A DNA stretch of 63,533 nt, counting the filler, from Collodictyon triciliatum (lineage: Eukaryota): NCBI GenBank assembly GCA_043381765.1. It is 3 parts of 3 records of this genome, joined end to end, with 100 filler letters (N's around TTAATTAATTAA, not from the genome) between each part and the next. Parts side by side here need not be neighbours in the genome. Positions count along the whole stretch, not along the records: positions 42,917 to 63,533 come from JBHJMP010001175.1; 2 more parts are not named here. The stretch is one strand, 5' to 3'. The notes under the pieces were generated by a model. The model made no database searches. It had not been told where the DNA came from and worked only from the letters and a program-made list of their open reading frames with translations. Of this stretch, positions 48,523 to 63,533 are shown in pieces. The translations under genes were made by a program, and so were the position numbers. The first letter of the stretch is position 1. Every line of letters begins with the position of its first letter.

Positions 48523-49552
48523 TTATTCCTTGTGATAAATGGAAATTTAATTAAATAGAAAAGATAATAAACGAACCTGTTCTGCTGCTGCTTCCTCTAC
48601 AAGTTTGTCAGAGGATTGTGATTTTCTCACAGCTTTTAGACGATACTCCACAACGATATTCCAGTCGACACACTTCAGCAAGATAGCATCCATAATTTCC
48701 CCCACAGTAGCATTACGTTCACAAAGGCGATTCAGGCGCTGCTGGAAATCAGTGTCTGTTGTGTCGAGGAGAACCTGTCGGAGCATATGGTTGCATTGCA
48801 CCAAGGATTCGATCATCGGCTGGAAATTAGCAGGAATCTTGTTTCCTCGAAGATCAAGGACGCTCAGCTTGGCTGCGGAAAAGCCGCGCTGAAGGATGAA
48901 GCGCCATTGGCGGTCACTGAGATCAATGTCCCGAAGAGAAAGGCTTTCAAGCAAATCTGTGACAGGCGACTGCAGCACAGTTTGCAACTCATCCATGGCC
49001 GGCAGCGACCAAGTGTTGCCGCTAAGGTCAAGATGGGCAACACACTTGCGATTTAAAACAAAGTTTAGGATTTCACGCAGGGCTGTTCCGGTCAGGTCGC
49101 AATGCGGAAGGCGGATCTGATCGAACCCGCCCACCTCTTCAAAGCCCTTCTGAATTAATGGGACAATCTTGTCACCCAGAGGGATTTTCCTACAGAAGCC
49201 GATGGGCAATTGCGATCGGTTAGGTTGAGATCTGGTCCATTTCTTTTCTTTTAACATATTTATATATCGCATGCTTCTCCTAGTTATTTTGAAATAAGTA
49301 AAAGACTGCGAATGAATAAAGAGGATCGTTGAAGTTAAATTGTGCCTACATTGCCACGAACGGCATCAGTTTAGCACTTGCGGACAGCTGCTGCAACTCC
49401 TTCTTGAGCCCAGCGAGAAAGGGATTAATGACAGTCTTTTTCATGGAGGGATCGTAGACCTTTGGCAGCTCTGCGCTCATGAAGGCAAAGTAGGTTTCGG
49501 CCTCTGCATTCCAGTGGATAAAGACGGGAAAGAGAGAGATGTTCAGCACCAT
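47442..49552 (-). CDS. LRR (RI-like) + PP2C/PPM protein phosphatase, 3 exons (last acceptor in gap 48333-48442)
   Basis: Exon 2 LRRs IRLPHCDLT, VAHLDLSGNTWS, LESLSLRDIDLS, LSVLDLRGNKIP. Last exon carries the PPM motifs GTREHMED, FAVFDGHGG, ASVGDS, RVNGVLGVSRALGD, MACDGLWDV and GSTDNITV; TAG at 47442. Confidence 0.9.
48443..48521. repeat. (AAC)n followed by (AAT)n, intronic
   Basis: Compound microsatellite at a gap edge. Confidence 0.95.
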
Positions 49553-49959
49553 AAAAGAGTGTAAACGTGGTTCTGGAGTCGATAAGACAAACAGCAATAA
49601 TATAGGCACACGATGAGCTCGTGCCTGTTTCTTTGGCTTTGAAGCGTTTTTTTTTTTTTTTTTTTTTTTTTTGATTATTCAGCTTTAAACCAAAGTGCGT
49701 CGAGAATAATAAGGGGAAAGTAAGGGGGCATTACATACTTGGGTTCTGAAAGAGCGGACCTTTCGCGCACGCACCTCCCATGATGAGTTTCTCTTCGTTT
49801 CGATTGTTGACCCCAGGGGCTAGACAAAAAAAGTGTAAAAAAGAGTGATGAAGGTGCATAACGATCCTCGAACGAATCAGCCAACATATTCACCCTGTGA
49901 AGTTTCTCTGGTTCACATATGACTATAAAGAACGGGAGAACAACCAGAAGAGAGGGGAG

Positions 49960-50100
49960 AGGAAAGGAAAGGAAAGGAAAGGAAAGGAAAGGAAAGGAAA
50001 GGAAAGGAAAGGAAAGGAAAGGAAAGGAAAGGAAAGGAAAGGAAAGGAAAAAAAAACAAAAAACAAAAACAAAAAACAAAAACAAAAACAAAAACAAAAA
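49960..50100. repeat. (GGAAA)n then (AAAAAC)n compound microsatellite
   Basis: Direct inspection; intergenic. Confidence 0.95.
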
Positions 50101-50751
50101 GGAATGAAAAGAACAGAACAGAACAGAATAGAACAGAAAAAAAGAAAGAAAAGAAACAGCAACGCCGCCTATTCCGCGTTGAACATCCACACAATGTCCA
50201 GACAGAGCCAAGGAGGCAGTCAAGAATGAGGCTGCACAAGACACAGCAGAAGCAGCGGCCAGAAAAGGCCCACCCAGGACGGAGGCCATCGCACCGCCCG
50301 ACTCGTTGGCCGCGCCTTCCGGCCCTCTCGACCCGCCCGAAAAACGGGATCACACACGACCGTCTGATCGCTTTGGTCGCACCTCCGCTATGGTCTCACG
50401 CAAATCCCATAATACGCCTTGGCTTCATTGTTTCTTTCGCCCAAGGCCATCGCATCCGTTATGACCAAAGGCGCTTTGGGAAGAATCTGTCTGGGGGCGC
50501 GCTTATGGCGGACTGCGTTTCATTGAAATATTCGCCGTTACGGGCTTCCTGATGTGTTGCTTTCAACGGAATATGAATGAGATTTTCCTAAAGGGGCCAA
50601 AGGGATTGCCCTTTTGTGGAGTGTTCAGATTTGCATCGGCGAGGGGCAGAAGAGCTAGTGGGTTTGCTGTCTTATCCTTGGTAAATGGCGACGGACGGTG
50701 ACGGATGGTGGGGTGGTAGGGGTGATGGGAGACAATGAGGGGTAGAGAATG

Positions 50752-51256
50752 TTATAAGTCTGCGCGTGTGATTTCGTAGTCTAAGGACAGCGTGAATGGC
50801 AAATCAACCAGTGGGTGCAAACACTCCCGAATCTGCTGTCGAGCCGTACTATTTCGGGTGAACGCAAAAGTCTCGTAGAACTTGGTCAGGTTCCCATCGT
50901 TCAGCGGAACAGCTTCAATCCAGTTGGGCAGAGATTTTGTGCTGTATCATTCAGAATCGGGCGTATTGGTGATGGATTACGAAAAGTAAATGAAGATGAT
51001 GTAATCTCTGCTTTGATATGGTGACAGGTATTGGGATATGGTTATGAATATCCTAAACATACTTTAACCCGTAGCACACAAGCGCTCTAACTTTGGCATC
51101 TTGTTTTCTGGCAAGAGATTCTATGGAATTCACTGTTTGAACTCCTGTTGTAAGGCTGAATCGCCCGGGCGGGTCTTGTGAAGTAGCTATGTGCCGTTTG
51201 AAGAGCAGGGATTTGTTTTGAATATGAACTCTTTTTTTTTCTTTTTCTTTTTCTTT

Positions 51257-51314
<58 letters not shown>

Positions 51315-54300
51315 GTTCATTTATATGCGTGTATTAAATTTCATATAAACTATATATCACAAAGATGACCACGGCTTAATCAGCACTTAAAGCTTTTAAC
51401 CCCGCATCAGGTGGAGGGAAGAGAATATGGGATAAAGAGAAGTGGTAAAACTACATGAAAATTACCAGTTTCTGAGAGCTTTTCAAAGTACTCCCAAATG
51501 TGATATTTTGAAAGAAACCGGTTGGATTTGAATCCGTAGAGCATGATTTTTGTGAAAGCCGTGCACAGTTGACCTCTGACCAAGGTATGAATTGCCATGT
51601 TTTGTGAATCATCTCCAAACGATATCTTTGTGAAGCAAAAGGATTGTGAACCAAAAATGAAACCTAATGGCTATAGATATGGGTTTATGTTATAAATAAG
51701 GTTATCAAAGGTTACTTTATCGGGCGCTTCATTAAACCTCGACCGTATTTCAGCCACCACAGACTGCAATCGAACGATTGGCTCTATTAAATCCATCCAT
51801 TAAAGAAGGGGGTAACAATTTAATTAGAACTGTATCTATTTAGTTCATTGCTGAGAAAAAAATGAGGAGAAACTGTTGCGGAACAAGAAATAGAAAAGGC
51901 ATTCGTTCAGACGTCTTACCCAGATTTAATGGAGATGGTTTTGCCGGGAGCTCCTGAATCTTTGTTTGGCTCTTATGTTGTTCTGAAACACAACATGGGG
52001 ATTGTATTAGTAGATAAGAATGTAAACGTGATTTATAATCAGGAAGCGTAAAAAAGTAATTATATGTCTGGTTGTTAAATAATAATAAAAATAGGCCCAG
52101 CCCAATATATATATAGTTAAATAAGACCATATCTAATCGGAATTCCGAGAAAGCATTTTTTTTTATTCGATGGTTGATATACTACGTGATATTAGATATG
52201 AAGGATATACCGTGGAGTGCAGAGAGCAATGATAAAGGACTCGAAAGGTTTTCGGAAAACATTACACTCCAAGATGCCTGAGAGGCTGGCTGTGTTTCTG
52301 CAGGAGCGGAGGATTGGGTAACACTTGTTTGGTTCAGAGGATTGGCAGGATTTGCCTGGTTGGCTGGCTTTTGTTGTGATTGTTGTGGTTGTTGCAGCTG
52401 CTGCTGGTTGTAAGTTTGCTGATTTTGTTGATTTCCAGTCACGTGCGTTGCTGGTAACTGCACGGGATTTGGTGAGGTTTGCATCACGGGTCTCTGAGTG
52501 ATGGGCTTCTGGGTCATGTGTGTTGGAGGGGGCTGGGTAGGAGGAAGCGGCGCCCTCTGTGAAGCAACAGTATAGTTGCTTGCTGGAGGCAACTGAGAAA
52601 TGCGAGAAGCATTTGGTCTTTGAATCGGCATCGGGTTGTAGTTGGTGATATTTGGAAGTGGTCCCGATACAGAGTGAGACGAAGTCTGGCGGGACATGGG
52701 CATAGCCGTAGGAGAAGGCTCCAACATGGGTCGGGTCTCTTCATTTGCGGGCAGAACTTGGGTTTGGAGCTTCATTATGGCAGTTTCTAAAGCAACACGG
52801 TTCTCTCGTTCTTCTTGCAGAGATTTCTCCAGCTCTTTGATTTTGTCCCACAATGACTTGGTCGCTGATTGAACAGCATCCTCCACGATACTCTTGAGTT
52901 TCTCAGGGTCGAAAAAGTGGCCTGAAGGAACTGGCGAAGATGGCGTTTGCGGTAATTGTTCAATACTTCCTGTTCCTTGGATTTGATCGGCAACTTTCCC
53001 ATCTGCACCAATTTGTGATATTTGGAGTGATGATGGTGTGGATGGCGTTTGCTGAAGAGGTTTTTCGGACTGCTTTTTATCCTCCTTCTTTGATGTTTTC
53101 TTGGTGTCTTCTTTACGGGCGAGCTCTTCAAGGCGAGCAGCAAGTTTCTGCTTTTCTGCAATGCGTGCTTCCTCTCGTAGCTTAATCAGCTCCTCCTTCT
53201 CCTTAGCTTCTCTTTCTTTGCGCTCTTTTCGCTTCTGAGAAAGTATTGGGGTGTATTTCCTTCTGACAAGCCAGCCTCGGACTCGTTTTTGTACGCGAAT
53301 GAGCCTTGCAAGGTATCTCTTGTATTTTCTTCTGGCCACAAACATTCGGATTACTACAAGCAAAGTATTTTAGTCAATATATTGCTCTGACAAAATAAAT
53401 ATGTTGCGAGTAGAAGCTATGGAATATTCATATACTATTCAATAAGAATATTCTTGGCTCAAGAACAAAAAAAAAAAAAACTGATGTAAATATGAACAAG
53501 AGTCATATATTTGATTTTTTTTAAAATAATAATAAGAATAAGAATTACAAGCTTGTATCTTTTTGGCCGCATTTCTGTATCGAATACGACGGAATCGCTT
53601 CAGGAATGTAGCCGAAATAATGAGCATCACAACCGCTGTCTGGCGGAAGCGGCGGAAAGCACGAAGGCAGCGCAACCGAACACAAACTTTTTCGAGGCAA
53701 AAAATACCAGAAAAGTATAAGTTAATTTCAATGAAAAACATAGCAGAATATAACATTTACACAAGAAAAATATTTTTACTTCTATGGAAAGCAACAGCCG
53801 CTGTGTGGGCTGACTTCCATCTCTTTCGAACAAGCCACTTTCTAACTCGCTCAGCAATTGCTGGAGCAAGTTCTTGATATTCATTTGACCGGAGTTCATC
53901 CAGAAATGCCAACTAGTTATATGAGGATGTATGAACACAGTTAAGCGACGACAAAATCAGTATCAGCCTATTAGAAGAGAAAAAGGGGATTGGCACAGAA
54001 TTTTGAAAAGAAGAAAAGGTCAAGGTATTTTGGATAGAAAAAGTATATCCAATAATCTGAGTATACAAGGATTACGGTGCTGTTATTTTTTATGGTTTAA
54101 ATTCGATGATGATACTTTTTTATTTCTCTTTTTGTCAAAATATGCAAGGATAATGCCATATAAAAATGGGAGGGGAATACACAAACCTTTCCTGCTCTAA
54201 AGAATATTTTTGTGATACCGAGCTGATAGTCTTTCTTATCGATGTCGAGTGCCATCAATAGCGCCTCACAAAATGATGAGGAATCTAGATTGGCAATTAT

Positions 54301-57300
54301 TGGAGGCATCATATCACGATACCTAAGATAGGTTGTAAAAAAAAAAGTATTTGTATTGAAAATTACACTGCTGGCCAGACAAGAGTAATTTTATTAGCAT
54401 GATTTTACTGCGGATGTATCAAATGTAACTAATAAGTACCTGGAATGCAAGTCATCATAGGGACACCGAGTGGGATATCCTGTATGCATCAATCGAAGTG
54501 CTTCGAGCATTCCACTACATCGGAGCTGTTCTAAAACCTTTGTGCCTTCAAATATACCAGACTTTTGAACCGAGTTTGGTTTAATGCATCGTATAAAATG
54601 CGATGCTGTTTGATTTAGTGACTCCATTAATTCGCCAAGTTGTTTCTATACGTAATTTTTTTTTAAAAAAAAAATCGTGTCAGAAGATATAAGAGAAAGT
54701 AAAACTAATCAGGCTATAACGACTACTTGGTTTACTTGTAGTTAAAGGAAACAAAATGTGCTCCACTTTACCGTGAATTTAGTGCCAACAGTACTCAGGC
54801 GGCCTTTCTTTTGGCTTTCCGCGCCTAGTATATCAGAGAAGAGAGACTTGATAAACTCTAACTCACTCACAGACAATAGTAACTTTAAATCGTCATGCAG
54901 AGCATCATTATTTTTTTCCAAGAATCCTGTTTTTGTATTATACATGACCTAGGTATATATAAAAGGAAAAGTATAAATTAATAAAGCTATTGATTCTGTC
55001 AAAATTGCAATATATATGTTGTTAGATATATAGCTTAGATTACGTCATTTATGCGAAAACATAATTCTACGCAAAATAACTGGGCCATGATAGACAGATG
55101 AGAATAATAACGCCTCATTACATCGTATATCATAAAAAAAAAAAGACACAAAAACAAATAAATAAATAAATAAATAAACAAATAGAATAAAAATCACCTG
55201 TCCAGCAAAATGTCTGATTGAAAATCCTTCGTCTGCTCTTAGTGTCTGGGTCTTTGAAACTTTAGGTGCTTTTAGATAAGGGTGATTAGGATAAATAGTA
55301 TGGACGCGACTGGTGAAAGTTTGATTAGTCCCTTTTGGTAGTTTTGATTCCTCGTCTAGTAACGCCAAGATACCCGTTGTTTTCTAATTTTAAGGAAATA
55401 GATTTGAGGAGACGAAGAAGAGGGGTCTGGACTGAGTGGGGTTACAGATGAAATTGGTTGGAAAAATATAATTATGCTGAGAATAGTATGGTGATATAAG
55501 GCAACCTTTTCAATCAAATCGATGCATGCTTGATTATCATCATATTCAATTCTAGTGTACTTGATACCCTCTCGGTCATAAATATCTTGTTCCTATAACA
55601 GATATATCAGCCAAAAGACAATAAGCATATGAAAATGGATATTGATTTACTCTTGTATCTCAATTGCTACTTGTTTGAATTTGAGATATTTTCGGGTATA
55701 AGAAAATAGTTCACCTGCCGGAAGATTTGTTGATTGAAGAACTGTTGCAGTTTTTCATTTGCGTAGTTGATACAAAGCTGCTCGAAGCTGTTAACCTACG
55801 TTTTTTTTTTCTTGCTTATTAACGAAAGTATGTATGAGAAGCAACGATTATTTTATTCATGTGTGTCTAGAGGGGAAGACTATCACATTAGTAATTTATC
55901 GTTTCGGAACGTGTGATAGGGATGTAAATATGGAGCTCACATCAAAATATTCGAAACCATAGATATCAAGAACTCCGATATTAAGAAATCCAGCCTCGTT
56001 TCCTTTGAGACCACCGTTTATTTTTTCGACAACAAGATCAAATAAACGAGAATACATGGCCTTTGCAAGGCCATCACGAGAGAAAGCGGCCTGCAGAGTT
56101 CGATAAGCGCGTATATCAGTAATTTTAACTTTGTAAAATGCACATTTGACAGTTAGGATTGCTTTTGGGAGAATGCTTGGCACTTACATCTTGAGCGTTG
56201 AGAGGAATTGTATAGAAACTCCCACTTTTTGACTTTGACTTCATAATCCTTGTTGTCATTCTTTGCTGGAGTGTGTCAGACGAAACTCCCAACAATTTAG
56301 CAGTGATTTCAAGCTCTGCATATATAAAAGAATTTTCAAAAAAATTAATTAATTAGTGACGAAAAAAAGATAGGCCTAATACAGGATATCAACTAAGGAT
56401 TACCCTCTGTATTTGATATGGAGCATCCCTCTTGGCGCTTCTGAGCTTCGAATTGGATGTTACAAAGATGCAATATAGCAGAAAGAATGCGAACGATGGA
56501 TTCTTGCTCTTCGTCACTAAACCCAACCAAGTGCATGGCTTCCTTTGATTGCATCAGCAAGATGAGTACAGTCACATGGATAGATCAAAAGCAACCCGCT
56601 AAGACAAAAATAGAGGAAAATATGGTTCTTGGGGATTAATGAGAAGTGTAATAGTAAGGAAGCCGAATGTAAATAAAATGAGAGTGAAAAGGTGCAAGAA
56701 AACTCACTCTAACACGAAGGTAATGATCAGAGTCGGAGACACCTTCGATTTCATAGCATCCGCTTTGATTCAATACCACAAAGCTAGATGCAGGTCCGAT
56801 ATGAAATTTTTCTATAAATTAACCGAAAAATATTGAAAATGAGGTATGTTGATTAATAATATCAAAAATATGTAATCAAAGCTAAGAAGGTGATATAATC
56901 AGCATCAATAGTTAAATAGATAGAAAATGGAAAGGTCAACACCTCTATCTTCTTTTGAGGCACCAGCACACAGTTGGTAGAAAATGTGATAATTACGCTC
57001 TCCTTTAATTTGTGTTACTATTCGAGACTAAATACGACAAGTTGGTGGCGATTCAGTAGACATTAAGAAGAAAAAGAGAGAGTATAGATGATGTCGGCAG
57101 GGGGGCAATTAATTTCAAGGAAGCAAAATCTTCTATCGGAAATCACCTTCTCAAGAAGATCTAATAACGAATACATTGAGAAATCAATTCAGTACATGCA
57201 CGAATAAAAATCAAGTTTCCATTTTCCGGTTTTGTAGAAATTGATGGATAATTTATGTTTCCTAGTCTTTTTCATAGAAATATATCTCGTGCAAAGACAA

Positions 57301-59435
57301 AAGTAAAATCTGCATATATTGGCTGGGGGAATATAGTAAAGAGCATTTACATGTCACGATGGACGCTCCACAGACGTGATATTGTTTGTTAAAATGTATT
57401 TGGGTGAATTTTCCCTGGGGTTAATTTGACAGGGTGATTAGCAACAAATGAAATTGCTAAATATGGTAAAATATTCAGTCATATAATAACACGCAAGAAA
57501 AAATAAAACGAATCTATAAAATGCGTATGTCATTTACTAATAATAAATAAATAAAAGAATTTTGACAATTTGAAAAAAAAATCAAGATAAAAACGAACGA
57601 ATCTGGACGAATTGTTGTTGCGAAGGGTTTTTGCATTTCCGAGTGCTTCGAGAATAGGATTTGCCTCTAAAATACGATGCTCAAGAATTCCAACCCCCGA
57701 ACGTCCGCCTACCGCGGCCAAGTATTTCATCACGATTTTGCTGGTCTCTGTTTTTCCAGCTCCACTTTCTCCACTGATGAAATGAATATTGGTGAGTATT
57801 GTTCGATATTTCTTCCTAAGATTTGTGCGAGGAGAGGGATGGGCTAATAAAATAATAAATGAAATATATCACAAACTACTAAATTTATGGAATGTAATTT
57901 ATACTTTTGATTGCGTTTTTTCTTTTTCTTTTTTTTTCTACTAATAACAGCGGTATGGATGACAAAAGGAAAAGTCTACGAGAAATCGGTTATGAAATAT
58001 TTTGTAATGGATTTGCATCGCACTCCATTTCTACCTGACAATAATTGACTGACTCCTTTTCTCTGCCCCACAATAGACAACAAAGCATAAAGAAAAAATT
58101 CAGTATGGGATGAAATCAAGCATTTTAATTCGTTGGGAAAGGATTATGCCAAAGAATCGAGATTTTGCTTGAAAAAATTAAATGAACAAGTGATTTGACA
58201 GAAAGAAAAATAGTATTATTAAATGGGGTAATCAATTAACCGGCTTTCATGAGACGATATGCTCTGTCGCACGTAGCAAATACATGAGGAGGTAGGACAC
58301 CGATGGATTTCCCTTGGTATTTCCTTAGTGTCTCTTCATCATACATAGGAAGGTTCCTGAATGGGTTCACCGCGATCAAGATGTATGCTGTATACGTCTA
58401 TATTTGCGATGGGAAAAATAATTGCTATTAAGTCATGATAGTTAGATTGAAATGTGGAAGGGAAATCATGTAGAAAAGAATTATGAATCTACGTATATAC
58501 ACGCACATTTTGCGTCAAAGAATATTCATATTTGATACATTTCTCTACAGAATATTAAATAAAATCATTCAAGAGACAATAGGATAGGAGAAAGGGGGAA
58601 TTGATGTATGAACCCCTTCCTGCAAATCAGAAAAATGTATACTTTTATCTTGTATTTTAAGAGCCATATTAAATCATTCGTTACATAGATTTCATTTCTG
58701 GAGAAACGATAATTTATATTGTGCAGCAAGCTGGGTTCGTGTAGATGCATCAATTGGGTATTGTCTTCTACTCCATCTTGGTTGGAGGGGTTCACCGGAT
58801 AGGCATGACCCACCGGTATGGTTTGAGTCTGTATCGGGATTGATGTGAATATGGGCAGTGAATAAAGTCAATCATTGGCCATGTATTTATATGGATCAAA
58901 CCGTATTTCAAAAAATAAGAAGGAAAAGGAAAGAAATAATAGATAATGGAGAAAAAGGGGGGAAAAAGGGGGGAAAGGAAAATTTTCCTTGGGTAGTAAT
59001 TAATTCCATGTGAAATGCAAGTATAAGGGTTTCTTTTTCTTTTTCTTTTTCTTTTTCTTCTTTTTCAAAAGAGTGGTCATGGATATCCTTACTTTTCCAT
59101 CCTTTCGTGATTTTACAGTAACTTGCCCATCATTTTGGGAGACGACGTCTGATAGAGCATATCCAGCTTCATTGTCCGCAACCCAAACAGCGGTTTGGTT
59201 CTATGTCACAAATGAGGTGAAAGTGAGGGCAGAAAAGAATTTATTCTCCTGGTTATGTCAACGTATCCCTTGTCACTAATTCCCCAAAGGCCAAAAAAAA
59301 AAAAAACTAAACTTTAATATTGGATTGTGTTGAAGAGAGGGGTTAAGTAGAGTAGCATAGGCGGAGGGGAAGACGAAAGCGAAGAATGAATAGAAAAATT
59401 GAAGTAAGGAGGCAACTCACCTGCGAATGTGACAT
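50752..59435 (-). CDS. Myosin VI-like heavy chain with 2 IQ motifs, charged helix, P/Q-rich linker and C-terminal RUN domain; over 25 exons
   Basis: Motor [112 protein letters not shown], all closest to remembered myosin VI segments. IQs [14 protein letters not shown] and [17 protein letters not shown] motifs [66 protein letters not shown] at 50752. Confidence 0.92.
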
Positions 59436-59957
59436 GACTGAAGCGTAAGAGCACTGTAAAGGACTGTCAGAAACGACCTAGCTTGGAGTGGAGAGGACCG
59501 CCACCAAGCAGCAGAACAAAGCAGAGGCACAGGACAACCACCCGCTTTGATTGGCAGAGCAAATGATCAGAGCATGGCACGACACCCGAGAATACTTGAG
59601 AGTCTGAATACCAATCAGTGGCTACAGAAAAGAGAACAGAACAGAACGGAGCGAGTGCCGCAGATCAAGCGAGCAAACCAGACGCAAGCAACAGGGCTGC
59701 CCAACAGATGCGGGCTATGCAGATTCAACAGCTCCCATTCCCGCGCTGGGACTGGTTCAAGCGGGGCAGGAGCGTGGATTCCACATAAAGACGGTCGAAT
59801 TCCCTTTATTGGCCGGAGGGCGGAGCGCCGGGCCGGCAGCAGCGCAGCGAGATGCAGGAGATACCGGACGGGAGAGAGGGGGTGCGTAGAGGATGGCACA
59901 GACAAGAGAAGAGAAGAGAAGAGAAGAATGAAAAAGAGGAGGAGGAGGCGGGTCGGT

Positions 59958-60812
59958 TTATGAGCAGAAGGCGTAGGGCCTGTGCAGGGCGGGGGCGTGG
60001 ACGTGGACGTGGACGTGGGCGGGGCGCCTGCGGAGGGGGCCGGAGTGGAGGGGGCGGTGGGGGTCGTGCGAGACGTGCGGGGAGGCGCAGGCCAAGGCGT
60101 CCGGGCGGGGGTCTCTGCGGCGGGGGCGGGCGGGGCCGTCGAGGTGCGTGATGTCTGTGCCGCGCAGCTCCTCCGTGGCGTTGAGGGCGCGCAGCTTGAG
60201 GCACAGCGGGCACTCGTGCAGGTGCCGCCGCCAGTGCTGGTTGCACGCGTTGCAGAACGGCGCAGACGCCCCCAGGTACCGGTACACCCGCTTCTTCTCC
60301 AGCCCGCAGCCGCTGCACGTGCGCGTGGCCCGGTGCTGCTCCTTGTGCGGCCCCGCCGGTGCTGCGCTCGTCGTCGTCGTCAGAAGCAGCGGCAGCGTTG
60401 TCGTCAGCGTCGGCGTGCCTGCCTGTGGCTGCCCAGCCGTCGGTGCGGGTGCTGCTGTGGCGGCGCTTGTGGCTGTGGCTGTGGCTGTGGTTGTGGCAGC
60501 ACCTGTGGCAGCGGGGCAGTCAAAGTCAAAGAAGGGATCGTCCAGGACCGGGAGGGCGGCGGCGTCCCACAGAGCGTCGAAGGAGGAGACGGGCGAGGCG
60601 ACGGACGCTTGCGAGGAGGCGGGTGGGGAGGCCAGCGGCGTCGGGTCGTCGCGTGTCCAGTGTGCGGAGTGCGTGGCGAGGAGGTGGTCCGTCCCGAGGG
60701 GTGCGCCGAACGGCTCCGCCTGCGCAGGGAGGTCCAGCAGCTCCGGGAAGAGGTCCGGGCATGAGGCGAAGAGGCTGCTGTCCAGGAAGAGGCTGTTGTC
60801 GTGGTGGGCCAT
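59958..60812 (-). CDS. Atypical GATA-type zinc finger protein (C-x2-C-x17-C-x2-C plus extra CxxC), single exon, GC-rich
   Basis: 284-aa ORF with an acidic/hydrophobic N-terminus, an A/T-rich linker and RTCSGCGLEKKRVYRYLGASAPFCNACNQHWRRHLHECPLC; strong GC3 bias; TATAAA box at ~61135-61140 on the minus strand. Confidence 0.75.
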   Translation of the reverse strand: MAHHDNSLFLDSSLFASCPDLFPELLDLPAQAEPFGAPLGTDHLLATHSAHWTRDDPTPLASPPASSQASVASPVSSFDALWDAAALPVLDDPFFDFDCPAATGAATTTATATATSAATAAPAPTAGQPQAGTPTLTTTLPLLLTTTTSAAPAGPHKEQHRATRTCSGCGLEKKRVYRYLGASAPFCNACNQHWRRHLHECPLCLKLRALNATEELRGTDITHLDGPARPRRRDPRPDALACASPHVSHDPHRPLHSGPLRRRPAHVHVHVHAPALHRPYAFCS

Positions 60813-61738
60813 CGAGTTTGGTGGTTGGTGGTTGGTGGTTGGTGGGTTGGTGGTGGGTTGGTTGGTTGGTTGGTTGGGCGCACTTGTCGGTCAGAGCAGG
60901 AAAATACGTCTGCGCTGAAAGCAAGAGGCAGGGGGGCGGGTTCTGCGGGTGGCAAAGGGGCGTTAGATCAACGGCAGGGCTTTGGGGGAGACACGTCGGC
61001 ATTTGGGGCAATGCACTCACCGGTTGGGCGAACTCGGGCGCGGGTGATCCCGGGGGAGGGCGGAGGTGTTTGGTGGGTGAGGATATTGTGATTCCCCTCG
61101 CGGAAGGGCTCCTGTTGCGCCAGTTGCGCGCTCATTTATAGTCTGCTGCCTTATGTGCAGCCGTGATCTCTGGCGCGATTATGTTCTGGATGTGTGGAAA
61201 GTGTAATTTATTCCAGATTTGTTCAAATGGATTGGGTTCTATGTGCGGTGACGTCACAGGTTGTGTATCTCCCTTTTCATTTCGGGCCTTTGCAGCAGGC
61301 GAGATTGTAAGAACAGCCCTGGAACACCTAACTGTATAGCGGAATACATACCTTTTCTATACGATATTCATACTTAATTATATATCATTCTTAATGAAAA
61401 TTATGGCAATTATTGATTGATAAATAATAATTTTATTATATTTTCCATATTAAAATGTATTCATATTAGGGGTATAGACCTCTATTACCCAAAAGAAGAA
61501 TTCAGAACGGGCGAACAGCAACGCCTGTCCACTGGCCAACCGTCCTTGGAAAACCAAGCGGCCCAAAGGGGAAGAAACAGTCAACCTTATTTGGCAGAAT
61601 TCTATTCTCGGAATTACCCGCAAGTATGTGCATATTCAGGAATAAATACCAAAAAGGATTTAAATCCAGAAAAGGTCAAATAAAGAAATCAGGGAATATC
61701 ATCGCCAAGCCTCAATTGTATGGATTCTACAACACTCT

Positions 61739-63311
61739 TTAGGCAAAGGGCGCATCCTCGTCCTCGGGCTCTGGTGCGGTGCTTCGTCCTTGTTGTGTCT
61801 GCCCTTTCTGGTGCCCAAGAGGGACTTCACCCTCGTGATGTGCCGCAGAGCCCGCAAAAAAGTGCGGGTGCAAACTTTGTGTTCCTTTTGATTGAAAGGC
61901 GCTCATAGCCCCCAAGACCTCGATTCTTGCAGGAATGGAATCTGAAGCCTCTTTCGGTAGTTCAGGGATGAGTCCTGGCTTCCTGCACCGGAGTAGAAAA
62001 CATAAATAAATAGAAAACAATATTGTAAAAATAATAAATATATCTGAGAACAGGATCTTTTCCTGCAAGGTGATCTCCCTTTTATTCAACTTATTTACTC
62101 AATATCACAGTTTGACCAATAAATATACTTTGTATATACACCCAGCTGAGATTTTTCGTCATTTTGCTATTCCCTTGTTTACAAAAAAGAAGAGAAAAAA
62201 AGAAGAGAAAAAAAGAAGAGAAAAAAAGAAGAGAAAAAAAGAAGAGAAAAAAAGAAGAGAAAAAAAGAAGAGAAAAAAAGAAGAGAAAAAAGAAGGAGGT
62301 ATATATATACTACTTGGTGGGTGCCAGTTCAGAGAGTTCGGTGTGAAGTCGTTTGAATTTTTGTAACTCATCTGAAACGTTTGGTACCTATATTTTACAA
62401 TATTTTCAGTGAGCACTAAACAATTATGTGATATTTTTGAACTTTCAAACAGAAAAATTGAAGGCAATTCATTCATTTTGACTATCATGCGCGATTCTAT
62501 TCCGAAATGAAGGTTATATCTGAGAATTTATGTCTTCATTTTCACCCAAATATGTATATCACTAGTATATTTTGCTTGATAATTCCAAACCACATTTTTG
62601 CTGGCAGTTTGAAAGAGTCTTAGAGGAACTGCTGCTTGACACTAAAGTGAAATTTAGTGTAGAAATTAAAATTAGATAAGTGAATAAGAGAAAAATTCGA
62701 CCCAAAATAAATAGTTAAATTGAGGATGTATTAACAAATCCATGAAATATTCACAAATGGTTCGTTTTCCAAAAACAAGAACTAAAAACAACCTCACGAA
62801 TGAAACGCCCCAGACCGTCATCCGAATCATCTATGGTATTCAATGCAAATATAGGATTCTATTGCATGAGCAGCAGAAATTATTACTGATTGATTGTTAG
62901 GTTGGAATTAGAGAAATTCTGTGGGGATTTCTTTTCAATTCTCAAAAAAATGGAAGAGTTCAGCCCTAGGTGTTCTACATACATCCAGAGATGAGGGTGA
63001 TGATTTTGTTGTGGCAAACTGCTCATCTTGTTTGTAAAGGCTTCCAGAACTCCCTGTTCTTGGCATTCCCTGCGGTCCAATTAGGGGTTGATTACTTGAT
63101 GTATTTAGTTCATGTGATAGCCACACCTAACGGAGGAGGAGACGGGAAAGATAGAAGATTCCTACAATGTTATCGATATGTATATCTAATTGGACAGAAG
63201 TATGATTTGGCTGGGAAATGTGTCGATTTTCTAACCCCAGTGTCCTCTTTTCTAAACGGTGCAACATTCAACTTTGCAGCCCTTGAATCCACTGAAATCG
63301 TAGAGCTAAAC
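61739..63311 (-). CDS. 3' exons of an unknown protein (continues past the window end)
   Basis: Chain of AG/GT-bounded exons FSSTISVDSR..|VWLSHELN..|DSDDGLGRFI|LSSSSSKTLSNCQQKC|DELQKFKRLHTELSELAPTK|KPGLIPELPKEASD..EPEDEDAPFA*. The last four junction phases fit; no domain recognised. Confidence 0.55.
62183..62295. repeat. 13-bp (AAAAAAAGAAGAG)n repeat, intronic
   Basis: Direct inspection. Confidence 0.92.
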
Positions 63312-63446
63312 TATTCAGATGATGAAACGATCATTTCATACATCATAACCAATAGTTTTTTTTTTAAAAAAAATTATCTCAATTATTCGCTAGCCTTAAT
63401 TATCACTACATTTTTCATCAAAAACCAAAACCAATTGAAAGTGAAT

Positions 63447-63521
63447 CAAAGCCAAAGCCAAAGCCAAAGCCAAAGCCAAAGCCAAAGCCAAAGCCAAAGC
63501 CAAAGCCAAAGCCAAAGCCAA
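63447..63521. repeat. (CAAAGC)n hexamer microsatellite
   Basis: Perfect array. Confidence 0.95.
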
Positions 63522-63533
63522 AACAAAAAAAAC

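Follow-up and report, generated by a model that had tools for sequence, protein, structure and literature searches.

Reverse-direction and RUN-domain myosins described so far

Myosin VI has been treated as the sole minus-end-directed actin motor and as an essentially holozoan one (PMC3942036, PMC10593786, PMC5583752). The animal protein (MYO6) carries insert-2, the reverse gear, after its converter, and also insert-1, which lies near the nucleotide pocket at residues 278-303 (PMC5762158, PMC11040104), a single IQ motif, a three-helix extension of the lever arm (PF21521), and a domain for cargo binding (PF16521).

The combination of a myosin head with a C-terminal RUN domain was described as unique among myosins by Sebe-Pedros et al. 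in 2014, who reported it in the "myosin VI" of Emiliania huxleyi and Thecamonas trahens, grouped these proteins with class VI (BS 25%, BPP 0.99), and placed alveolate VI-like genes in class XXIII (PMC3942036). In 2017, Kollmar and Muhlhausen rejected class-6 membership of the related E. huxleyi myosins because the characteristic class-6 loops are missing in them (PMC5583752), and the class VI status of haptophyte and apusomonad RUN-domain myosins is therefore disputed in print. Insert-2 is not discussed in the passages that PMC3942036 devotes to RUN-domain myosins, and a literature search found no paper describing it in such proteins. The search yielded only an AlphaFold-based prediction of 2026 for two apicomplexan myosins, PfMyoJ and PfMyoK, which were predicted to be minus-end directed by superposing models of the converter and neck (PMC13448217), the same logic as is used here. 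Both have an insert-2-like sequence after the converter, as does the protist myosin described below; they differ from it in lineage and tail and were not among the sequences analysed here.

The window studied is a stretch of 63,533 nucleotides (filler included) from the assembly GCA_043381765.1 of Collodictyon triciliatum, of which positions 42,917-63,533 come from JBHJMP010001175.1. Gene structure and splicing, clade membership, a sequence signature, and a predicted lever geometry with its control are established here for a RUN-domain myosin encoded in this window.

Gene structure and domain layout

The gene lies on the minus strand at about 59200-50755 and comprises at least 21 exons (Table 1). 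All 20 introns of the model are GT..AG and the frame is open; an exon with the start codon was not found in the modelled gene. The model is identical to a transcript-derived orthologue, P0001, at 902 of 1149 aligned positions (78.5%), and Pfam assigns the head of P0001 to Myosin_head with 829 bits. From N to C terminus, the protein consists of an SH3-like N-terminus, the motor, the neck, an ER/K helix, a coiled-coil and Q/P-rich tail, and the RUN domain. In the remainder of the window, Pfam gave no match in a GC-rich open frame (59961-60890) or in the frame 48547-49365.

The initial annotation had placed two peptides after the converter on this strand, the second of them encoded by the next exon and preceding IQ1. 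Both are indeed encoded there, within this gene, the annotated start at 53553 falling 4 nt inside the 3' end of the exon. The first exon (53912..53780) translates to 44 residues and directly follows the exon that ends in KIFFRAGK at 54187, while the second (53686..53549) codes for the 28-residue peptide and then the beginning of IQ1. This arrangement is borne out by cDNA-like contigs from two public runs: one of 2715 nt from X1 and one of 981 nt from X2 that bears a loose end resembling a cDNA primer, each matching at 99% or more. Both contigs skip exactly 53354-53548, 53687-53779, 53913-54186, and 54323-54439, so that in a spliced form the first peptide runs directly into the second. In two further runs, X3 and X4, contigs reach no more than parts of the tail exon and of exon 20, and their lack of cover elsewhere carries no weight. 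One X4 contig has a 9-letter loose end at 53549 that fits the 53353/53549 joint, too short to count.

The long tail exon is modelled to end at 52203, and the first RUN exon starts at about 51787. The RUN exons (51787-50755) are located downstream of the motor on the same strand and are collinear with the tail of a related protein, P0005, in which Pfam detects RUN with 47.1 bits; in the window itself, 50752-50946 matches RUN (PF02759) with 28.6 bits against a cut-off of 22. A myosin head and a C-terminal RUN domain are thus found in one gene, linked by collinearity with P0005. In P0001, Pfam reports Myosin_head, Myosin_N, and IQ only, with neither the lever extension PF21521 nor the cargo-binding domain PF16521. 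A search with the RUN region of P0005 matched P0005 alone among 333 candidates and is uninformative on the distribution of this tail.

Table 1. Features of the RUN-domain myosin gene (positions count along the window)
Feature	Position	Strand	Evidence
Whole myosin gene as modelled	50755..59200	minus	tblastn with P0001 and P0005; spliced 21-exon model, all GT-AG
Exon for most of the converter, ending in KIFFRAGK	54187..54322	minus	junction 54187/53912 in X1 and X2 contigs
Exon 19: end of last converter helix, linker, insert-2-like core (13 residues)	53780..53912	minus	gene model and X1/X2 contigs
Linker SNEYQELAP	53862..53888	minus	AlphaFold2 helix break at S-N-E; clade G/P enrichment
Insert-2-like segment, non-IQ helix, spanning the intron 53687-53779	53661..53861	minus	profile; superposes on myosin VI at about 780-825
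Intron, 93 nt, GT..AG, phase 1	53687..53779	minus	gene model; skipped in X1 and X2 contigs
Exon 20: distal insert-2-like part, segment B, start of IQ1	53549..53686	minus	gene model and X1/X2 contigs
Segment B, conserved basic-amphipathic non-IQ helix (containing the 28-residue peptide)	53562..53660	minus	alignments, AlphaFold2 model, profile
IQ1, canonical, spanning the intron 53354-53548	53298..53561	minus	18.6 bits with the 103-segment IQ1 profile; Pfam IQ of P0001 at the same place
Intron, 195 nt, GT..AG	53354..53548	minus	gene model; skipped in X1 and X2 contigs
IQ2, canonical (14-residue motif)	53241..53297	minus	18.8 bits with the same IQ1 profile
ER/K-rich stretch, 56 residues, probably SAH	53073..53240	minus	composition; first 13 residues in the model, helical
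C-terminal RUN domain exons	50755..51787	minus	tblastn with P0005 tail; Pfam RUN

Relationship of the motor to myosin VI

The closest solved motor is that of animal myosin VI. A sequence search of the PDB with P0001 ranks myosin VI first at 711.8 bits (2x51_A), followed outside class VI by 7dhw_A (650.4), Dictyostelium myosin II (621.7), and myosin Va (610.4). A motor tree (FastTree LG+G, 173 motors, 656 columns, midpoint rooted, with SH-like supports and a sample picked by similarity to the query) is divided by a 65/108 split with support 1.0, which corresponds to sequences lacking Q at the Q-position of IQ1 versus conventional myosins. The 65-tip side contains 11 metazoan-type myosins VI, 53 protist proteins, and the window's myosin. 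The last falls together with metazoan VI in one 50-tip clade (support 0.915, SH-like and on the similarity-selected sample) and outside the 11-tip clade of metazoan-type VI (support 1.0). It is thus likely that animal myosin VI has a large sister group, made up mostly of protist proteins, and that the window's RUN-domain myosin is a member of it. The Thecamonas protein (P0048), which likewise combines a myosin head with a C-terminal RUN domain, sits in another subclade.

The 26-residue insert-1 is absent from P0001, and only P0083 and P0076 carry it among 17 aligned sequences. P0001 aligns in one stretch with the delta-insert-1 constructs 2x51 and 2vas, and in two stretches with wild-type myosin VI. 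Whereas animal MYO6 has one IQ motif, the window's protein has two; segment B adds about 29 residues between the insert-2-like segment and IQ1, and the protein ends in a RUN domain. In this gene, the reverse gear is recognisable while insert-1, the other class-defining element, and the MYO6 tail are missing.

Sequence of the post-converter segment

As in MYO6, the first post-converter motif is not an IQ: a hydrophobic residue and V/A occupy the place of "IQ" and are followed by V-x-x-W-L-x-x-x-R-W-K/R. A profile built from eight metazoan-type myosin VI post-converter segments gives the window's segment 22.3 bits, compared with a median of 0.1 and at most 14.5 in 101 conventional myosins (7 more unscored), so that its likeness to insert-2 exceeds chance; the protist clade has a median of 21.6 and a minimum of 2.1 (n=54). 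A profile of 103 conventional IQ1 segments matches the first post-converter site only partially, over 8 residues (2.5 bits). One or more G or P occur in the 12-residue linker of 42 of the 54 protist clade members and of 5 of 9 metazoan myosins VI, as against 23 of 105 conventional myosins.

These data have to be weighed against a second reading, in which the lever is conventional and plus-end directed, consists of five tandem repeats of the 23-residue IQ period, the first three of them drifted, and shows a kink merely as AlphaFold2 recalling myosin VI. Several comparisons would fit it. The distance from the converter Gly to the W of the motif is 27 residues, the same as in conventional myosins and with no length insertion. 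When the 45-aa post-converter exon was compared with the PDB, its best match was IQ1 of myosin Va (E 0.023, gapless), and myosin VI reached no better than E 1.3. The neck of P0001 aligns in register with IQ1-IQ5 of myosin Va, which has six IQ motifs and a similar period of 23-25 residues, at a score of 187 with two 2-residue gaps, while two necks of myosin VI reach 98 and 86; for the post-converter part alone, the scores are 63-72 with myosin Va and 53-60 with myosin VI. A database search with residues 700-900 of P0001 returned 7 clade members and, after these, 22 myosins of class V type, the best at E 1.8e-14; myosin VI was absent from the hits, candidates being limited to sequences with exact 5-residue words in common with the query. 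In addition, the insert-2-like segment scores 45 with the gene's own IQ2, a value reached by 1 of 2000 shuffles (21.7 +/- 4.4). Judged at the level of sequence, plain pairwise comparison fails here to separate insert-2 from IQ1.

Despite this register, a conventional lever is considered unlikely. The motor groups with myosin VI, the insert-2 profile ranks the segment above all 101 scored conventional IQ1 segments, and throughout the clade the linker has an excess of helix-breaking residues. Moreover, the IQxxxRGxxxR consensus (PF00612 type) was not detected at sites 1-3, which score 2.5 (partial), 0.0, and -1.5 bits with the profile of conventional IQ1 segments; in this, too, the neck differs from that of myosin V, with which it shares canonical motifs at IQ1 and IQ2.

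Predicted lever geometry

The remaining evidence comes from structure prediction. AlphaFold2 was run, without light chains, on residues 662-873 of the orthologue P0001 with an alignment of 52 protist clade members from which metazoan myosin VI was left out, and the best of five models was used. Of the 212 positions modelled, 190 are identical in the window's own protein, as are 52 of the 54 between residues 67 and 120. The model (pLDDT 93.1) has a helix at 67-75, a break at 76-78, and a second helix at 79-211. The break falls at S-N-E, where myosin VI leaves the conventional lever path.

Structural superposition places the model on myosin VI well beyond this point. By VIA-align, it matches 2vas_A with Z 11.8 (110 residues at 3.7 A, model 10-120 on chain 705-815) and 2bki_A over 119 residues at 4.1 A (model 11-131), whereas for myosin V, II, and I chains with levers the alignments stop at model residues 76-82, after 64-73 aligned residues. 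Similarly, Foldseek alignments of about 100 columns with myosin V have an rmsd of 13.5-14.7 A, as against 3.9-4.7 A with myosin VI. The lever of myosin V is straight and continuous with the converter helix, and the model departs from it at residues 76-82. As a control, a class XI-like fragment of equal length and with equal alignment rows was predicted as an unbroken helix (65-211). Its match to myosin Va extends through the lever (1w7j_A, 94 residues at 1.4 A; 7yv9_A, 212 residues at 4.9 A). The 50 structural matches listed for it include no chain of myosin VI.

The kink in P0001 was thus predicted without metazoan myosin VI in the alignment and in contrast to a straight conventional control, which argues against the conventional reading; the training of AlphaFold2 included myosin VI structures, which weakens this argument. 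An insert-2 is therefore present by prediction, from the profile and AlphaFold2. The initial annotation had aligned the post-converter segment with insert-2, had proposed that a converter-to-IQ2 model be superposed on myosin VI, and had named a straight conventional helix as the contrary outcome. The first point is upheld by the motor clade, the profile score, and the predicted break and lever path with their straight control, and in the calmodulin-free model of P0001 a kink is predicted rather than a straight helix.

Direction of movement and evolutionary implications

On the balance of this evidence, the whole is likely to represent a redirected, insert-2-like reverse-gear lever on a RUN-domain myosin that is sister to animal VI, with segment B as an extension. 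Briefly, the last converter helix would be broken by a short linker, S-N-E followed six residues later by a Pro, and a new helix with the non-IQ motif I-A-x-R-V-x-x-W-L-x-R-K-R-W-K would follow the insert-2 path of myosin VI. This remodelled first light-chain site would act as the reverse gear, redirecting the lever so that the power stroke points toward the minus (pointed) end of actin. Onward, the helix is predicted to run unbroken through the 33 residues of segment B, two canonical IQ motifs, and the ER/K-rich helix, an element that also follows the neck in MYO6. Since the start of the lever resembles the reverse gear of myosin VI, also in its predicted fold, the motor probably walks backwards, i.e., it is probably minus-end directed on actin. 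If this prediction holds, backward transport on actin would be old and widespread.

A broader reading is offered tentatively, as somewhat short of an even chance: the reverse gear may be the founding trait of a eukaryote-wide superclass (sampled here as 53 protist representatives and metazoan VI) and may have arisen from a first IQ period remodelled before insert-1 and the MYO6 tail, the present gene being its long-lever form. If true, minus-end-directed actin motors would be common in protists, the reverse gear would be no animal or holozoan invention, and the 2014/2017 dispute on haptophyte "class 6" myosins would be settled for shared ancestry.

Segment B and the lever extension

The initial annotation had also proposed a second IQ in the lever, and this finds support in two canonical motifs of 18.6 and 18.8 bits. 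Counting the non-IQ sites, five lever sites start exactly 23 residues apart in the model (86, 109, 132, 155, and 178), a register that the conventional reading discussed above would share. Because of this pitch, the lever is most likely a long reversed rod on which as many as five calmodulin-like light chains would sit, those at the two or three non-IQ sites being putative. Were the superclass reading correct, this lever of up to five light-chain sites, with its strict 23-residue pitch and a helix of about 18 nm, would replace the animal three-helix extension. Provided that the predicted direction holds, it would be a natural experiment on how far a reversed lever can lengthen.

Segment B comprises 33 residues within the single helix of the P0001 model (pLDDT 97-98) and is absent from metazoan myosin VI. 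It is most likely a conserved, clade-specific extension of the lever and not a duplicate of insert-2. Quite improbable is a fold in which segment B binds no light chain and instead packs back on itself like the three-helix extension of animal VI, or takes part in regulation or dimerisation. Such a fold would be favoured by a Pro or Gly that several subclades conserve midway along the segment, and by some relatives in which the segment continues straight into the ER/K helix without an IQ. Against it, the segment lies in one confidently predicted helix of the orthologue and has the basic amphipathic composition of a light-chain site, and the conserved spacing of 3 x 23 residues fits a rod along which light chains are bound. 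Calmodulin will dock on most helices that are basic and amphipathic.

The proposal of the initial annotation that the second segment is similar to the first and that insert-2 is duplicated, giving two reverse-gear-type non-IQ calmodulin sites in tandem, was not supported and is highly improbable: both segments are basic and then hydrophobic, and segment B does lie between the insert-2-like site and IQ1, where metazoan myosin VI lacks it, yet the Smith-Waterman score of the two (15) is below the shuffle mean (17.5 +/- 3.4, reached by 1669 of 2000), the model has one helix (79-211) without a second kink, and the spacing fits generic light-chain periods of 23 residues better than a copied insert-2 unit, which in metazoan myosin VI is about 40 residues long.

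Among the 44 clade rows scorable by a strict pattern, 13 have IQ1 62 residues away from the motif W, a spacing scattered over several subclades, that of Thecamonas included. The residues in the middle of segment B read, for example, IPLAR in P0003 and P0010. In P0130, P0134, and P0141, segment B is joined directly to the ER/K helix.

Gene Structure, Transcript Support, and Tail

A multi-exon eukaryotic myosin gene occupies the minus strand of the window from about 59200 to 50755. Its motor exons are AT-rich (GC 0.34-0.39), and the P-loop (GESGAGKT), switch I (NNNSSRFGK), and switch II (DIYGFE) are found in open frames. A model of 21 exons was built, guided by P0001, the nearest protein in the database and a 1174-residue transcript-derived open reading frame (94% identity on the query exon). 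All introns are GT..AG, the reading frame is open, and the product is identical to P0001 at 902 of 1149 positions (78.5%). Two micro-exons were found only through this orthologue-guided search and would be missed by a reading based on open frames.

Contigs of 2715 nt (X1) and 981 nt (X2), the latter with a cDNA-primer-like loose end, come from two public sequencing runs; they are 99% or more alike and skip exactly the modelled introns 53354-53548, 53687-53779, 53913-54186, and 54323-54439. The two peptides that the initial annotation had read as insert-2 and its duplicate are therefore real and contiguous in a spliced form; both are encoded where that reading placed them, with exon borders matched by the contigs.

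Coordinates of selected exons of the myosin gene
Feature	Position in window	Strand	Remarks
Micro-exon, 28 nt	58035-58062	minus	Motor domain, stretch before the P-loop; orthologue-guided search
Micro-exon, 14 nt	57147-57160	minus	Motor domain, Y-L-L-E-K motif; orthologue-guided search
Exon with first peptide	53912-53780	minus	Encodes LAFLDEL...; directly after the exon ending KIFFRAGK
Exon with second peptide and start of IQ1	53686-53549	minus	Spliced model
RUN-domain exons	51787-50755	minus	Downstream of the motor, same strand; collinear with the tail of database protein P0005

The Pfam RUN domain matches window 50752-50946 with 28.6 bits (cut-off 22), and the gene is, by its predicted domains, a new member of the RUN-domain myosin group. 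P0001 ends without a RUN domain soon after an LSLLSALHG motif (compared with window 52182-52260), whereas the window and P0005 run on into the RUN exons; the P0001 transcript may retain an intron or represent an alternative isoform. An intron between RUN-domain exons contains a stretch of over 80 T with short TTTTC repeats (51228-51315).

Relationship to Class VI Myosins

Among all PDB sequences, myosin VI is closest to P0001 (711.8 bits), ahead of a class XI motor (650.4), Dictyostelium myosin II (621.7), and myosin Va (610.4). Constructs from which insert-1, the other class VI motor insertion, is deleted align with P0001 in one stretch, and wild-type myosin VI does so in two; in a 17-sequence alignment, the 26-residue insert-1 occurs only in the two metazoan-type proteins. 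With HMMER, 35249 myosins were retrieved at E <= 0.001 from 1.84 billion representatives, and the best 150 were used. In a FastTree phylogeny (LG+G) of 173 motors and 656 columns, a 65|108 split with support 1.0 places the window's protein with 53 protist and 11 metazoan-type VI proteins. The latter form their own clade (support 1.0), and the window and metazoan VI fall within one 50-tip clade (support 0.915). Q is missing from the IQ1 glutamine position in all 65 motors on this side.

Published views on class VI membership of RUN-domain myosins are split. Sebe-Pedros et al. 2014 (PMC3942036), who already describe the RUN-myosin family and call its tail unique among myosins, place the E. huxleyi and T. 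trahens proteins in class VI (BS 25%, BPP 0.99). Kollmar and Muhlhausen 2017 (PMC5583752) deny class-6 membership to the related E. huxleyi myosins. With regard to strict class VI features, insert-1 and a class VI tail are absent from the window's protein, and the reverse gear is present by prediction. The myosin is a relative of myosin VI and is predicted to operate in the same way, yet it is not a MYO6-type member.

The First Segment after the Converter

Sequence alone leaves the identity of the first segment as insert-2 ambiguous. In the PDB, its 45-residue exon matches myosin Va IQ1 best (gapless, E 0.023), compared with E 1.3 for myosin VI, and the whole neck is in register with myosin Va IQ1-IQ5 (score 187, two 2-residue gaps), compared with 98 and 86 for two myosin VI necks. 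When P0001 residues 700-900 served as the query, 7 clade members came first, followed by 22 class V-type myosins (best E 1.8e-14). The segment is also similar to IQ2 of the same gene, with a score that 1 of 2000 shuffles attains. The converter Gly and the motif W are 27 residues apart, as in conventional myosins, and therefore nothing is "inserted" here; in a 178-row alignment, myosin VI insert-2 and the IQ1 of other myosins share the same columns.

Profiles, on the other hand, do distinguish insert-2 from conventional IQ1. One profile, built from 8 metazoan-type insert-2 segments, gives 22.3 bits for the window, a median of 21.6 (minimum 2.1, n = 54) for the protist clade, and a median of 0.1 (maximum 14.5, n = 101; 7 unscored) for conventional IQ1. 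With a second profile, built from 103 conventional IQ1 segments, the window's first site scores 2.5 bits over 8 residues, compared with 18.6 and 18.8 for its two true IQ motifs. G or P is present in the 12-residue linker before the motif in 42/54 protist clade members, 5/9 metazoan VI, and 23/105 conventional myosins.

Predicted Lever Geometry

AlphaFold2, whose training included myosin VI, was run on P0001 residues 662-873, which stand in for the window's spliced protein (190 of 212 positions identical; 52 of 54 in the critical model residues 67-120). Its input alignment contained 52 protist clade members, metazoan myosin VI being left out on purpose. The findings are those of the best model (pLDDT 93.1), built without light chains. 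The last converter helix (model residues 67-75) is followed by non-helical S76-N77-E78 and a single helix, 79-211. By rigid-body alignment, model residues 10-120 match myosin VI 2vas_A residues 705-815 (Z 11.8, 110 residues, 3.7 A) and residues 11-131 match 2bki_A (119 residues, 4.1 A). The match to conventional chains (myosin V; scallop, squid, and smooth muscle myosin II; myosins 1b and 1c) ends at model residues 76-82; these alignments cover 64-73 residues and have a Z of about 8. In Foldseek, myosin VI chains that contain insert-2 had an rmsd of 3.9-4.7 A, compared with 13.5-14.7 A over about 100 columns for lever-bearing myosin V chains.

A class XI-like control fragment of equal length and number of alignment rows gave a helix, 65-211, without a break. 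Its superposition on myosin Va extended along the lever (94 residues at 1.4 A; 212 residues on 7yv9 at 4.9 A), and no myosin VI chain occurred among the 50 superposition matches listed. The neck of P0001 is predicted to kink just after the converter and to follow the myosin VI path over the 110-119 residues aligned, not to run on as a straight conventional helix. The proposal of an insert-2, ambiguous by pairwise comparison, gains from the profile scores, the predicted break, and this path: it seems fairly likely that insert-2 is present and that the motor is hence minus-end directed. The same logic of superposing predicted structures has been applied with AlphaFold3 to human myosins and PfMyoJ/K in PMC13448217, and VI-like motors directed to the minus end have thus already been proposed for protists in print. 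A full-text literature search found no description of a reverse gear in the RUN-myosin family, nor of its extended lever of 23-residue pitch.

The Second Segment and the Pitch of the Lever

The proposed duplication of insert-2 is not supported. The Smith-Waterman score between the first segment and the second (segment B) is 15 (shuffles 17.5 +/- 3.4; 1669 of 2000 reach the observed value), and a second helix break was absent from the P0001 model. Segment B is also unlike the IQ region (score 20; shuffles 25.2 +/- 4.9). From the end of the insert-2 region to IQ1, the protist proteins are about 29 residues longer than metazoan myosin VI, and Thecamonas P0048 shares this extra stretch.

The motif W and the IQ1 isoleucine are 62 residues apart in 13 of the 44 clade rows scorable by a strict pattern; these rows are spread over several subclades, and other rows differ or escaped the pattern. 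With the 7 residues before W, the distance is 69, or 3 x 23, and five sites begin at model residues 86, 109, 132, 155, and 178. Read most simply, the lever would be a rod composed of five light-chain periods: the first would have become the reverse gear by remodelling, sites 2 and 3 would have lost the IQ consensus (0.0 and -1.5 bits with the IQ profile), and the last two are canonical. Sites 2 and 3 may bind light chains. An intramolecular role for segment B is possible because a Pro or Gly is conserved within it in other subclades.

Lever composition varies among relatives. One subgroup has segment B followed by an ER/K helix and no IQ. In a PH-domain subgroup of the same clade (P0055, P0065, and P0142), the insert-2-like motif leads directly into an ER/K helix with zero IQ motifs, which would represent a minimal "reverse gear plus SAH" lever.

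Genomic Neighborhood

The window contains 1591 N and therefore gaps in the assembly. A sharp GC island (60000-60999, and about 59600-61130; GC 0.70 compared with about 0.34 in the myosin gene) lies immediately upstream of the gene and carries long overlapping minus-strand open frames rich in Pro, Ala, and Thr. One of them, 59961-60890, has cysteines in the arrangement C-x2-C-x17-C-x2-C, which recalls a GATA-type zinc finger; it has no match in Pfam. A 272-residue minus-strand frame, 48547-49365, may be a neighboring gene; it shows leucine-rich-repeat-like periodicity (LDLSGN..., LDLRGNKI) and no Pfam match at E <= 0.01. Microsatellite-like arrays with repetitive translations occur at 49900-50230, 62160-62330, and 63400-63533; they include KERKG / LSFPF units, FFSS / LFFF units, and a GT/CA-type dinucleotide run at the window end.
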